Positions 585-8,071 of a stretch of DNA of 52,552 bases are shown here, piece by piece; the first letter of the stretch is position 1; the number at the start of each line of letters is the position of its first letter. Below the pieces are notes generated by a model. The model had not been told where the DNA came from, searched no databases, and saw nothing but the letters and a program-made list of their open reading frames with translations. The DNA is from a virus (lineage: Duplodnaviria; Caudoviricetes), in the IMG/VR virus record IMGVR_UViG_3300018080_000030, positions 1-52,552 of that record; one strand, given 5' to 3'. Position numbers and translations under genes: made by a program.

Positions 585-905
585 ATGGCTGACAAAATCG
601 AATTGGCAAAGCTTCTCCTCAGAAGAAAACAATTACAGGAGAAGGTTGATCAACTGAGGAATATCAATGTACCTGACCTGTTTAAGATAAAGGCAACCAG
701 GAGGCGTGCTTCGGAGGGAATCGATGACGTAGTAGCTGAGATTCCTAAGATTGCGATGCAGCAGGTAACTGCCGCATATGATTGGCACGCAAAAAGATTG
801 CGAGAAGTTGATGCAGCTATTCAACAGGCGAATTGGGTGACTATGATCGAGTACGAGAAGACTTGGATGGAAGACTACGTGGATCCTTATGCCAAAGCTG
901 AATAG
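585..905 (+). CDS. DIP1984/septicolysin-like coiled-coil protein
   Basis: RBS GGAGGA at 575-580. N-terminal ELAKLLLRRKQLQEKVDQLR and C-terminal LREVDAAIQQANWVT resemble the family ends as I recall them; the protein is shorter than typical members. Confidence 0.6.
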   Translation: MADKIELAKLLLRRKQLQEKVDQLRNINVPDLFKIKATRRRASEGIDDVVAEIPKIAMQQVTAAYDWHAKRLREVDAAIQQANWVTMIEYEKTWMEDYVDPYAKAE

Positions 906-908
906 CTG

Positions 909-1237
909 AAAACATCCAGATGGAAGCGGAGGGGCAAAGGCGGGCAACCAGGCCTTAACTGGTTAGGTGGAGCGCGACACCGTTGCAATTATTATTTGTT
1001 AGCTCAATGGTAGAGCAACTGACTTAGGATCAGTAGGTTGTCGGTTCAAATCCGATGCATTACGGCACTGTAAATGCCTATAAAGTCGTCTGCGGACTTT
1101 AAGCGCAGGGTATTCCGAATGACCGAATTTTTAACAGTGAATATCCGAATACCCGACTAACGAGCTGCGGCTCCAGAACATCCAGAGACCGACTAAGAGA
1201 AATCCGAATAACCGCGCCCCTGCACCATCTGGTTTTT
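909..1237 (+). ncRNA. Putative ~330 nt structured RNA with a closing stem, an embedded tRNA-like domain and repeated motifs
   Basis: ccagatgg 916-923 pairs with ccatctgg 1225-1232 and aggggc 930-935 with gcccct 1216-1221, followed by a T-run. No ORF on the + strand; several internal hairpins. Confidence 0.65.
1000..1059 (+). tRNA. tRNA-like domain (anticodon TAG) lacking a normal acceptor stem and CCA
   Basis: D arm gctc/aatggta/gagc, anticodon arm actga/cttagga/tcagt, T arm gtcgg/ttcaaat/ccgat; only about 3 acceptor pairs form. Confidence 0.75.
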
Positions 1238-5300: not shown

Positions 5301-5561
5301 ATGGCTACTAAGAAACCTGAAAAGGAAAACCTGTTGGAACAGACAGGTGAAATGCTCTCCCGAGAGGTTGAGTTGGAGACTGTGGAGAAAGTTAGAGAGG
5401 ACTTTAAGCGGAAAATTGGGAATTTGAAAGCCAGAATAGCTGACTATGAGAGACTTGCGGCTGAAACGCGTGATAAGCTCAGAACTCTGGAAAGTAAGAC
5501 GGTTGATGAGTACTTGCAGAGCGTGAATATCGCGGATTTTATGCATGAGAGGGAATTATGA
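5301..5561 (+). CDS. Hypothetical coiled-coil protein
   Basis: RBS AGGAGG; ATGA overlap with the polymerase gene. Confidence 0.7.
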   Translation: MATKKPEKENLLEQTGEMLSREVELETVEKVREDFKRKIGNLKARIADYERLAAETRDKLRTLESKTVDEYLQSVNIADFMHEREL

Positions 5562-8071
5562 ATCTGGTGCCAGCTATAGGACCAGTTCCTGCTGACATAT
5601 TGCTGGTAGGAGAAGCCCCTGGTAGAGAGGAGGCAGCCAGGGGTGCTCCATTTGTCGGCGAATCAGGGCAGGAACTGACACAGTATTTGAGTAATGCAGG
5701 AATCAACCGTTATTCTCAATGCAGAATTACGAACCTGGTTCCATTCAACCCTCCTAAAAATAGAGACCCAAGTGCTGCTGAGATATTGGAGCACAAGGGC
5801 GCTTTGATAGACGAGATTGTAAATACCAGGCCAAAGGTGATAGGAGCGGTTGGCCGGCTATCTGCATCTACCCTTGCCATGCGTAATGTGGTGATGGAGA
5901 AGGAGCATGGTATCCCATTTATGTTTGGGAGTATACCAGTTGTCCCTATGTATCATCCCGCGGCAGGGTTACGGAGCACATGGCTGATGAGCAGGATACG
6001 GTCCGACTTTGAGCAGCTAAAGTTATGCTTAGATGGAAAGCTGAAGCCTGTAGAATGGGCTGCGCCAGCTATGGACATAGTTGAGCTTACTCCGGACAAC
6101 ATGATTACTGAAGCCTGCTTCTTCTTAACAGAGATGAATAGTACAGGTATAGTAGCTATAGATACTGAGAATCCGGATGACATACCTTGGAGCATACAGA
6201 TTTGTGCTACTCCTGGAACTGTGTTCTTTATTAGAGCCGCTGATATGGTACATCCTTCATTTGCTCGGCAAATCAAAGAAGCCATAGAGAACTCTCTATG
6301 CGTGTTTCATAACGCCAGGTATGACTTGGCTGTGCTGAGGAAGATGGATATACAGCCAACACGGTTTGTGGATACGATGAACATGGCTTACTTGTTGGGT
6401 GAGGTACAGAAGTTGAAGTATTTAGCATACAGACTACTCCATGTCCAGATGCAGGATTATGAAGAGGTGGTGAGAAGTTCTACGGAGTCCAGGGCTTTTG
6501 ACTATCTGACTAAGGTGTTAAGTATGGAGTGGGAAACTCCTGCACCTGTTCTTGAGCTGAAAGGCAGGAAACTACATACCAGAAATCCACAACACATCCA
6601 TACCAAGGTCCGCAGGCTGATGAAAAAGTGGTCTAATGATCCTATGAGTCTGCGGGATAAATGGGTTGACATGAAAGAGAAGGAGTATGTGGAGGCCAGG
6701 ATTGGTGAGATGCCGTTAGGGTCTGTAGCAAAGATTGACTTACAACAGGCTATGAATTATGCGTGCAGGGATGCTGATGTCACCATGAGGGTATATAGGA
6801 TTATGTCTCAGATGCTGAAAGACAGAGGGCTGGAGACCCCTCTTAAAATCGATATGGCTGCTCTGCCAATGGTGGTACAGATGGAGGAAAACGGTTTTCA
6901 ACTGGACTCAGGACACCTTATCCGGTATTCAATTCAGCTCAACCACAGGATGGAGAAGATTAAACATGAGTTGGATTGTCTGCTGCTGGAGAAGGGGTTT
7001 CTCAAAAAGGATGAGTATTATAATCCGAAGTCGCCGAAAGTGGCGATGGAGATGCTAAAACATCTGAAAGTTAGAGTCAAGACCACAGAGGCAAAGTACC
7101 TGATCCCGCATAAGGGCAGGCATAAGGCGATAGCTCTCCACCTGGATTTCAAAAAGCTGGCTAAGCTGGAATCCACATATACTACATCTTTGGTAAAACA
7201 GGTAAAGGATGGGAGGATTCATACCTCACTGCCTATGACTGTTGCTGACACGTGGAGACTGGCAAGCAGGAATCCGAATCTACAAAACATCCCTGTGCGT
7301 GGAATAGATGGTAAGACGATCCGCGAGGCGTTCATTGTTCCGAAAGGATGTAAGCTGCTAAGTGTGGATTACTCACAGATTGAGATGCGGGTAGCCGCAC
7401 ATATGAGCGCTGATGAGCGAATGATAAAAATCTTCCGACAGGGCAAAGACCTGCATAGTATGACCTCAGAGGCTATCTTCGGGGATACCACCTCTGAGCA
7501 TCGCTATCCTACAAAACAAGCAGGTTTTGGAATCTTATATAAGATTAGTCCTATGGGATTACATGAATTACTTGAAGCTGAGGGTGTGAAGAGTTGGACT
7601 GAGGAGAGGTGCGCACAGTTGATCCTTGACTGGTATAAGCAATATCCTGGGATAGCTGCTATGCAGGATAAGTTTGAGTTAGAAGCATTTAATACGGGGA
7701 GAGTGATGGACTTATTTGGTAAGCCTCGCATGGTTCCTGAAGTCTACTCTGCCCATGCCCGGGTGCGTAATGCTGGGGTGCGACAGGCGTGTAATGCCCC
7801 AATTCAAAGTAGTGCAGCCGGTATTTTGAAGAGGGCTATGGCTAAACTATTGCCAGTTTGTGAGATGTTATCGCAAGCTGGACACTTCAAACCACTCTTA
7901 CAGATACATGATGAGCTATTATTCGAGGTAGGTGAGGACATCTTGGACATGGCAGTGGAGTGGATTGTGTCTGCAATGGAAGACTCCGTGAATTTGATTG
8001 TTCCAATTAAATGCGATGTGGAGGTGGGGGATAACTGGGGGTCATTGGAGAGTTATTATGAAGATGGTTAG
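5558..8071 (+). CDS. polA: Family A DNA polymerase with N-terminal family-4 uracil-DNA glycosylase and 3'-5' exonuclease domains
   Basis: UDG4 motifs GEAPG and YHPAA; exonuclease DTE, HNARYD and YACRDA; polymerase motifs NPNLQNIP, DYSQIEMR and QIHDEL. Confidence 0.93.
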   Translation: MNLVPAIGPVPADILLVGEAPGREEAARGAPFVGESGQELTQYLSNAGINRYSQCRITNLVPFNPPKNRDPSAAEILEHKGALIDEIVNTRPKVIGAVGRLSASTLAMRNVVMEKEHGIPFMFGSIPVVPMYHPAAGLRSTWLMSRIRSDFEQLKLCLDGKLKPVEWAAPAMDIVELTPDNMITEACFFLTEMNSTGIVAIDTENPDDIPWSIQICATPGTVFFIRAADMVHPSFARQIKEAIENSLCVFHNARYDLAVLRKMDIQPTRFVDTMNMAYLLGEVQKLKYLAYRLLHVQMQDYEEVVRSSTESRAFDYLTKVLSMEWETPAPVLELKGRKLHTRNPQHIHTKVRRLMKKWSNDPMSLRDKWVDMKEKEYVEARIGEMPLGSVAKIDLQQAMNYACRDADVTMRVYRIMSQMLKDRGLETPLKIDMAALPMVVQMEENGFQLDSGHLIRYSIQLNHRMEKIKHELDCLLLEKGFLKKDEYYNPKSPKVAMEMLKHLKVRVKTTEAKYLIPHKGRHKAIALHLDFKKLAKLESTYTTSLVKQVKDGRIHTSLPMTVADTWRLASRNPNLQNIPVRGIDGKTIREAFIVPKGCKLLSVDYSQIEMRVAAHMSADERMIKIFRQGKDLHSMTSEAIFGDTTSEHRYPTKQAGFGILYKISPMGLHELLEAEGVKSWTEERCAQLILDWYKQYPGIAAMQDKFELEAFNTGRVMDLFGKPRMVPEVYSAHARVRNAGVRQACNAPIQSSAAGILKRAMAKLLPVCEMLSQAGHFKPLLQIHDELLFEVGEDILDMAVEWIVSAMEDSVNLIVPIKCDVEVGDNWGSLESYYEDG

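Follow-up and report, generated by a model that had tools for sequence, protein, structure and literature searches.

What does a phage keep in a non-coding gap of several hundred nucleotides directly behind a short gene, and why do relatives of that gene, among quite different neighbours, keep such a gap too? The locus that raises this question lies in the IMG/VR virus record IMGVR_UViG_3300018080_000030, whose whole analysed stretch of 52,552 nucleotides (nt) we call the window. The gene, at 585-905, encodes a 106-residue protein related to the DUF6847 (DIP1984-like) family, and the next open reading frame (ORF) begins at 1263, which leaves a non-coding gap of 357 nt. We find that the segment from about 916 to 1232 almost certainly corresponds to a structured non-coding RNA on the + strand. 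As judged by comparison of sequences, this RNA and the short-form DUF6847 gene probably make up a two-part module of tailed phages and prophages, likely a ribonucleoprotein. That the RNA and the protein function together is highly likely, and we lean towards a physical interaction between them; that the CCGA(A/C/T)T units (hereafter CCGAHT) repeated in the RNA are the protein's binding sites is doubtful.

Architecture and conservation of the RNA

The locus consists of the following parts (coordinates in the window, strand, description):

1-52,552: the window, a complete virus record with direct terminal repeats at its ends
585-905, +: short-form DUF6847 / DIP1984-like protein gene, 106 amino acids, with the ribosome-binding site GGAGGA at 575-580
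916-923, +: 5' strand of the closing helix P1, pairing with 1225-1232
930-935, +: 5' strand of P2, AGGGGC, pairing with 1216-1221; this G-run/C-run pairing recurs in relatives
937-964, +: pseudoknot 1, in which AAGGC (937-941) pairs with loop bases 952-956 of P3
946-951 / 959-964, +: stem of the P3 hairpin, with the loop GCCTTAA, whose first five bases take part in pseudoknot 1
966-981, +: P4 hairpin (966-969 / 978-981), followed by a conserved GTTGCA at 982-987
992-1063, +: insert resembling a transfer RNA (tRNA), with a D arm (1002-1016), an anticodon arm (1018-1034), a T arm (1040-1056) and a degenerate acceptor stem
1082-1108, +: pseudoknot 2, AAAGTC (1082-1087) with GACTTT (1095-1100) in the loop of CTGCG (1090-1094) / CGCAG (1104-1108)
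1115-1213, +: CCGAHT array of six units, starting at 1115, 1123, 1145, 1153, 1189 and 1204
1204-1213, +: terminal motif CCGAATAACC, the end of the CCGAHT array
1216-1232, +: 3' strands of P2 (1216-1221) and P1 (1225-1232)
1233-1237, +: stretch of five T immediately 3' of P1, where the RNA may end

The first-pass annotation of this DNA had described the gene, the pairing of the segment's ends, the repeat units and two copies of AACATCCAGA, and all of these lie where it had placed them, the two copies being recovered at 911 and 1177 by a repeat search; it overlooked the tRNA-like insert and the two pseudoknots. The inverted-repeat arms at 911-923 and 1225-1237 are 13 nt long and 85% complementary, and the minimum free energy (MFE) fold of 911-1237 includes both the 916-923/1225-1232 and the 930-935/1216-1221 helices, which together with the behaviour of the closing arms in relatives (below) bears out the end pairing. 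The repeats also proved real: six CCGA(A/C/T)T units fall within 95 nt, making up six of the 21 plus-strand copies in the 52,552 nt, and this clustering is beyond chance, as none of 2000 random placements gave at least six units within 100 nt. Two pairs of units are spaced 8 nt apart. Pseudoknot 2 was read from the sequence and the MFE fold, and in relatives an equivalent pseudoknotted hairpin directly precedes the first CCGAHT unit.

A protein-led scan of IMG/VR yielded 56 loci (L numbers below) with homologues at 31-62% identity, and in most of them a gap of 250-640 nt follows the gene. The RNA measures about 290-500 nt across loci, insert included, and relatives share the order of its elements: closing helix, GCG box, G-run (P2), purine strand and P3 forming a pseudoknot, P4, GTTGCA, insert, a second pseudoknotted hairpin and the 3' domain. 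For the 5' domain, RNAalifold on plain MAFFT alignments recovered just four pairs, and for the 3' domain none; we therefore built a covariance model of the 5' domain (R1) from a hand-given structure. R1 matches 50 of the 52 distinct IMG/VR sources, once in each and always on the strand of the gene, and the two that it misses (L042 and L054) carry divergent versions by eye.

The R1 alignment displays double changes in all five pairs of P3 and in all three counted pairs of P4. Standard pairs occupy 83% of its cells compared with 61% in shuffles, the covariation score was reached by none of 500 shuffles, and slid registers all score far lower. For pseudoknot 1, the first pair is of the type C-G in 21, U-A in 14, G-C in 4 and A-U in 2 of 43 distinct sequences, with two wobble pairs, and pairs 2-4 show compensatory types as well; the linker of this pseudoknot varies by 1-2 nt among relatives. 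P1 differs from locus to locus in sequence and in length, from about 8 to more than 25 base pairs (the latter in L020, L034 and L039, for example), and is complementary within each locus. Across 44 distinct loci, closing arms score a mean of -35.1 kcal/mol with their own partner versus -19.3 kcal/mol with the arms of other loci. The own arm is the single best partner in 18 of the 44, and in the window it is the best of all; most of the other loci belong to one subfamily with a common P1 sequence.

In the 44 aligned 3' domains the CCGAHT units stand at fixed positions and end in CCGAHT(A/G)ACC just 5' of the P2 and P1 3' strands. This domain is apparently unpaired, with no consensus pairing in RNAalifold. 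A search for covarying closing stems and repeats downstream of homologues had been proposed as a check, and the closing helix, the hairpins and the repeats are conserved in relatives.

The strand of the RNA can be read from the same alignments. P4 is paired in 97.9% of cells, and on the + strand it holds 22 G-U or U-G cells against 3 non-standard ones, which argues that the RNA is made from that strand. Furthermore, in 25 of 41 loci the + strand gives the stabler P1 duplex (p = 0.03), with a gain of 10-22 kcal/mol where P1 is long. The sequencing runs listed for this DNA are five DNA runs, with no RNA run among them.

No family in Rfam 15 covers the conserved core, either in the window or in ten relatives. 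The RNA resembles GOLLD and ROOL in being phage-borne, complex, pseudoknotted and of no known function. GOLLD and ROOL are associated with tRNA genes; the phage RNA differs from them in being much smaller and in having a dedicated protein neighbour, and their Rfam models gave no match at E <= 1 in 400-1700 of the window nor at E <= 0.1 in the ten relatives. The names of the family are absent from the searched parts of Fremin et al. 2023 (PMC10690425) and of its supplement, although pieces of this RNA may be among the 8,495 candidate RNAs catalogued there, and the portion of the Minerva preprint that was consulted makes no mention of the RNA or of the DUF6847 family. We regard the RNA core as an uncatalogued family.

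The DUF6847 protein and its linkage to the RNA

The ORF listing offers a longer frame for the gene (573-905, 110 amino acids); we prefer the ATG at 585, since the alignment of homologues and the position of the GGAGGA favour it. The Pfam DUF6847 profile matches the protein at 28.7 bits, above its cut-off of 27, as a single stretch over positions 63-139 of 141, which is the C-terminal 55% of the profile. The NCBIfam model NF038048 (DIP1984_fam) reaches 24.5 bits, below its cut-off of 70, over positions 111-147 of 149. All 32 aligned homologues match Pfam DUF6847 (best E = 4.8e-9). Their alignment contains 17 invariant residues, mostly in one N-terminal and one C-terminal motif, and a profile of the 32 sequences finds PDB entry 3kdq_A (E = 6.5e-4) with both terminal motifs aligned (LAEAL..R and R.LD..IQ..NW). 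The entry was deposited as an 'uncharacterized conserved protein' with four chains. The phage homologues have about 100 residues, compared with about 141 profile positions, and the window protein is best described as a member of a short, divergent DUF6847 subfamily. Accordingly, the DIP1984 family call of the first-pass annotation stands for DUF6847 by the Pfam score, the 32 homologues and 3kdq, and does not extend to the full-length form. Of 35 papers found in a literature search, the 20 that were listed do not name DUF6847 or DIP1984, and we found no function for the family.

Searches with the single window protein gave no match in PHROGs or in the PDB. Its AlphaFold model, with a predicted local distance difference test (pLDDT) score of 71, runs strand, helix, beta-hairpin, helix, strand. 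Foldseek of this model against the PDB returned none at E <= 0.001 (top row prefoldin, E = 0.2), a wide fold search with VIA-align returned generic helical hairpins only (Z <= 6.8), and 3kdq was absent from the top rows of both. A prediction of four-copy association scored 0.74, against 0.00 for the best of three controls. In the calibration, 20 of 30 proteins with homo-pair structures got to this mark, as did 1 of 23 with single-chain structures; our job differs from that calibration in using four copies and a custom alignment. The runs had at least 72% of contacts in common and a partner pLDDT of at least 73. The window protein is thus predicted to self-associate, through an interface of residues 2-13 and 82-95, the most conserved motifs. 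The most divergent proteins are those of L055 and L056 (31-36% identity, with an insertion of 12-13 residues); their adjoining RNA keeps P1, pseudoknot 1 and a good tRNA, and the 3' domain of the L055 RNA has ACTAAGAA-type repeats in place of CCGAHT.

The link between gene and RNA holds in both search directions. Beyond DUF6847, the commonest cluster of neighbouring genes occurs in 17 of 57 loci, the neighbours in relatives are replication and recombination genes of differing kinds, and a search with the 215-residue gene downstream gave a single weak locus. Since the flanking genes are not conserved, the protein and the RNA appear to form a module of two parts. Starting from the RNA, we searched IMG/VR for a pattern made up of three CCGAHT units; this returned 40 loci, 31 of which encode the protein on the same strand. 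Nineteen of the 40 lie on contigs that were new to the analysis, and these split into 10 with both an R1 match and the protein and 9 with neither; the nine consist of 8-nt tandem arrays, an intergenic region rich in CCGACTAAC, or coding sequence, and two of them also lack upstream sequence. The order of the parts can change, with the RNA upstream of the gene in L040 and L051 and an ORF between RNA and gene at several other loci. Conserved downstream RNA, this two-way linkage and the predicted self-association all speak for the ribonucleoprotein that the first-pass annotation had proposed.

The module is found outside the IMG/VR loci as well. All eight loci from bacterial genomes or metagenome-assembled genomes with the gene have an R1 match downstream; they come from several phyla (Legionella, Desulfosporosinus, Latescibacterota, Acidoferrales, Hyphomicrobiaceae, Fluviicoccus and Sansalvadorimonas). 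Homologues without a conserved downstream RNA had been named as one finding that would tell against the proposal; 50 of 52 IMG/VR sources and these eight loci have the RNA. Furthermore, 13 records of cultured Vibrio phages encode a homologue (Zobellviridae in the two examined). In these two, phages 1.264.O and PS32B.1, unannotated gaps of 373 nt and 302 nt follow the gene and R1 matches weakly (E = 0.026 and 0.014, respectively); inspection of 1.264.O by eye shows pseudoknot 1, P4, CCGAAT units and a terminal TCCGAATGACC.

We also considered full-length DUF6847 genes of cells. Among 301 genomes of one phylum (Firmicutes), 16 have DUF6847 over the family cut-off, and for the comparison we read the sequence downstream of 16 full-length gene copies from 14 genomes (L112-L125). 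These 16 genes are followed by about 200 nt with common motifs; the same G-rich 3' tail is present in 10 of 13 distinct loci examined, several of them with a T-arm-like hairpin. Rfam gave no match on the cellular downstream stretch (13/16 loci scanned), and R1 on 17 cellular loci gave marginal matches, in the expected place in 2. Like the phage RNA, the cellular one lies downstream of a DUF6847 gene and on the strand of that gene. By eye, the cellular RNA has a GGCGA-type box followed by a hairpin whose 7-8-nt loop ends in UAA or AAA, the first loop bases of this hairpin match an upstream strand in a way that resembles pseudoknot 1, and an ACUACC box near the 3' end recalls the phage ACUAACC. 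It differs in having neither the CCGAHT array nor a full tRNA-like insert, and in its G-rich tail, which the phage RNA lacks. The two resemble each other to a degree judged by eye alone, and the cellular loci strengthen the suggestion that DUF6847 proteins work with a neighbouring RNA. Among 14 control genomes, Deinococcus radiodurans has the sole DUF6847 match and is one of two with TROVE/Ro60.

Two kinds of repeat region elsewhere share the core motif. On other phage contigs, intergenic DNA holds tandem arrays whose 8-nt unit is CCGAAT or CCGACT with two further bases, in about 12 copies in L071, 7 in L072 and 10 in L094, with three units only in L062; these contigs carry neither a DUF6847 gene nor the 5' domain of the RNA, and the paired units in the RNA stand the same 8 nt apart. 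In L066, L074 and L079, a non-coding region contains more than 10 copies of CCGACTAAC(C) or CGACTAAC, a differing repeat landscape around the same core motif.

The tRNA-like insert and the relation to Y RNAs

ARAGORN calls the window insert (992-1063) a tRNA of type 'Leu' with the anticodon TAG (loop triplet 1025-1027). The Rfam tRNA model matches it at 52.4 bits, against a gathering score of 29, over model positions 8-63 only, which indicates that the acceptor stem is missing. Indeed, a manual count gives three of seven possible acceptor pairs, ARAGORN itself shows unpaired positions there, and the variable region has 5-6 nt. A decoding tRNA has an acceptor stem of 7 base pairs and, with a Leu anticodon, a long variable arm. 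The window insert departs from a functional decoding tRNA on both counts, the acceptor stem and the variable region.

Across loci, ARAGORN places a tRNA 90-300 nt after the stop in 17 of 56, with the triplets gat, gtt, cct, tct, ttg, gct, ctg, atg, aat, tat and tta. Acceptor stems are imperfect in many of these calls, and aat, atg and tta are atypical loop triplets for bacterial tRNAs. L013, L015 and L022 carry near-identical tRNA bodies about 120 nt after the stop, with the anticodons GTT, CCT and TCT, which looks like rapid anticodon switching in one scaffold. The arms themselves vary in order: among 46 distinct loci, a regular-expression search finds D then T in 14, T then D in 12, T only in 10, D-T-D in 1 and neither in 9. 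In loci where ARAGORN finds no tRNA, the middle insert instead gives sub-threshold matches to the Rfam YrlA model (41 bits, E = 1e-5 in L003; 36.3 bits in L020; 29.7 bits in L034), and the L003 insert runs T arm, hairpin, D arm, the permuted topology of YrlA. The tRNA-like module looks like exchangeable cargo at one insertion site, the conserved core being everything else.

Bacterial Y RNAs present T and D arms in both orientations, YrlA versus Yrn1, according to the part of Chen et al. 2014 (PMC4201824) that was consulted. The phage RNA is like them in several ways: a stem formed by its 5' and 3' ends encloses a tRNA-like domain whose T and D arms come in either order, both kinds of RNA are found in phages, and the Rfam matches on the inserts of three relatives, though below threshold, are non-random. 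It differs from YrlA in scores that stay below the gathering score of 69 bits (RF02553; 18.6 bits, E = 0.76 for the window, best relative 41) and in a core of two pseudoknots, P4 and the CCGAHT array that has no counterpart in the YrlA model. In the phage RNA, moreover, the tRNA-like domain is dispensable and the linked protein is DUF6847. A profile search for TROVE/Ro60 found none in the complete phage record, where control genomes did match, and none among 19 neighbouring genes of relatives that were scanned. Membership in YrlA was ruled out by the score and Ro60 tests. Since the phage has no Ro60 gene, the partner of the RNA would be the DUF6847 protein, a host factor, or both.

Because of the tRNA-like domain and the pseudoknots, we consider Y RNAs such as YrlA, and not CsrB, to be the nearest analogue. 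By that analogy, the phage RNA and protein are a variant of a Y-RNA-like, tRNA-mimicking ribonucleoprotein theme and not a YrlA member. In some relatives (L047 and L049, for example), the 5' region (compare 920-945 of the window) has GGCGAAUG and then a G-run, and resembles the 5' strand of the YrlA consensus (cggCgaAUGC..ggGg); the resemblance may be due to chance.

Proposed function, competing explanations and genomic setting

How might such a module work? We propose that gene and RNA would share one transcript, given that P1 begins 11 nt past the stop codon and that a sigma-70/terminator scan found no promoter-like site on the + strand (and no result above chance). The RNA could then be released by cleavage at the long P1 duplex, or end at the T-run after P1. 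A self-associating DUF6847 oligomer would bind it to give a stable ribonucleoprotein, which might present the tRNA-shaped arm to host factors that recognise tRNA, as Y RNAs do for Ro60, and so act as a tether or decoy early in infection. A bolder version, to which we give little credence, is that DUF6847 and its pseudoknotted neighbour RNAs represent a new, Ro60-independent class of ribonucleoprotein in cells and phages, to which phages have added a swap-in tRNA mimic with a fast-changing anticodon-like loop and the CCGAHT array, so as to decoy or trap host defence nucleases that target tRNA, or host factors that sense it, in the early phase of infection.

Should the particle exist, it would provide the first functional handle on DUF6847/DIP1984, a family with a crystal structure and no known role, and would place another kind of ribonucleoprotein that mimics tRNA next to Ro60-Y RNA. 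The compact covarying fold, with two pseudoknots and a site that takes tRNA-shaped modules of either topology, is attractive as an object of structural work and as an RNA scaffold. The module stands among early genes for replication and recombination in phages that are unrelated, and it crosses phyla, which suggests a general role in host takeover, and the cultured Vibrio phages that carry it make the hypothesis directly testable.

Several observations weigh against an RNA-protein particle of this kind. The fold of the window RNA has a z-score of -1.9, with 3 of 100 shuffles as stable. The figure of 99% paired for pseudoknot 1 is inflated, as the parse required complementarity, and the variety of pair types is the real evidence there. 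The protein model is of moderate confidence (pLDDT 71) and its fold matches are uninformative. The conservation of residues 2-13 and 82-95 may reflect self-assembly and not contact with RNA, and the oligomer result may itself stem from the predictor's memory of 3kdq, since that structure was solved with four chains. Because the window insert lacks an acceptor stem and 9 of 46 loci have no tRNA-like arms, tRNA mimicry cannot be the core function. Finally, the cellular DUF6847-adjacent RNAs have no CCGAHT arrays, which weakens the idea that the repeats are protein sites; if the DUF6847 family has one binding mode, the site would therefore lie elsewhere than in CCGAHT.

This last point leads to an alternative that we hold to be unlikely, namely that the RNA targets a host factor, with the CCGAHT array as a sponge for a host RNA-binding protein and DUF6847 acting in the same pathway without contact to the repeats, or binding the core only. 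The absence of repeats from the cellular RNAs would then mark the array as a phage-lineage addition, and the 8-nt CCGAAT/CCGACT arrays of L062, L071, L072 and L094, without protein or 5' domain, suggest a motif seemingly used alone. Nevertheless, no candidate host factor is known, and in 31 of 31 genuine matches the array sits inside a P1/P2-closed RNA adjoining the gene.

It is less easy still to see the RNA as having no protein partner at all, as a scaffold for the processing or expression of phage tRNAs, a structured 3' untranslated region or a terminator, with its place beside DUF6847 being inherited synteny; we consider this improbable. The good tRNA inserts of L010 and L055 (63.7 and 64.5 bits, full-length model matches) fit such a role, a long P1 duplex resembles a processing stem, and 21 of 44 distinct loci have a T-run behind P1, where 17% of random 40-nt windows contain one, so that it is frequent without being universal. 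On the other hand, tRNA-like arms are missing from nine of the 46 loci, and the acceptor stem is poor or the triplet atypical in many inserts. Moreover, the linkage to the gene persists through complete turnover of flanking genes, through the changed gene order of L040 and L051 and across phyla, and remote cellular members of the family also have a downstream RNA.

The first-pass annotation had compared the locus with CsrB-type sponges and with type III toxin-antitoxin pairs. The phage RNA does share with CsrB/RsmZ and with type III antitoxin RNAs the presence of several short motifs or repeats in an RNA that adjoins or acts on an oligomeric protein (in the phage, oligomeric by prediction), but it differs from CsrB/RsmZ in a motif that is CCGAHT and not GGA in hairpin loops, and in having no CsrA. 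In type III (ToxIN-like) systems, tandem RNA repeats of about 30-40 nt lie upstream of an endoribonuclease toxin gene. That the protein is a toxin and the repeat RNA its antitoxin is very improbable: a small gene for a protein predicted to oligomerise does adjoin a repeat-bearing RNA, yet direct repeats in 400-1400 never exceed three copies or 20 nt, so there are no long tandem units, the repeat unit is a 6-nt motif within a complex fold, the RNA lies downstream (3') of the gene, and the protein matches no nuclease, endoribonuclease or toxin family in Pfam, NCBIfam or PHROGs. The toxin-antitoxin analogy is dropped. Equally hard to sustain is a DNA-level element (an iteron origin, a packaging site or a mobile element with inverted repeats at its ends), for although short repeats with flanking inverted repeats in a replication/recombination block would suit one, compensatory changes keep the hairpins and the pseudoknot, G-U pairs are tolerated on the + strand only, R1 matches one strand only in 50 of 50, tRNA-type D and T arms are present, and spacings of 8, 22, 8, 36 and 15 nt between units do not fit the helical repeat.

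With a two-part RNA-protein module as the preferred reading, its genomic setting can be described briefly. Almost all genes of the window are on the + strand. Recognised structural products include a P22-like portal, an SU10-like capsid protein and a beta-helix tail protein, and the replication and recombination products include a family A DNA polymerase fused to a uracil-DNA glycosylase domain, a Dam methylase, a Sak4-like ATPase, an ERCC4 nuclease and an SbcC-like ATPase. The DUF6847 gene and the RNA stand where this replication/recombination block begins. The glycosylase domain is N-terminal in the window polymerase (5558-8068), and in relatives the polymerase and clamp-loader genes carry LAGLIDADG insertions (e.g. 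L019 380-2896; L003 3664-5505).

Neither TTAACAGTGAAT nor TCCGAATA is enriched genome-wide in the 52,552-nt window. Upstream of the gene, the arms 479-490 and 531-542 form a 12-nt inverted repeat around a 40-nt loop; with the T run behind it (479-547 in all), 3' of the preceding gene, it is probably the terminator of that gene. An 18-nt near-repeat that includes TTAACAGTGAAT occurs at 557-574, just 5' of the DUF6847 ribosome-binding site, and again at 1125-1142 in the 3' domain of the RNA; these hold the only two exact copies of TTAACAGTGAAT in the genome, and the near-repeat could be a phage promoter or operator.

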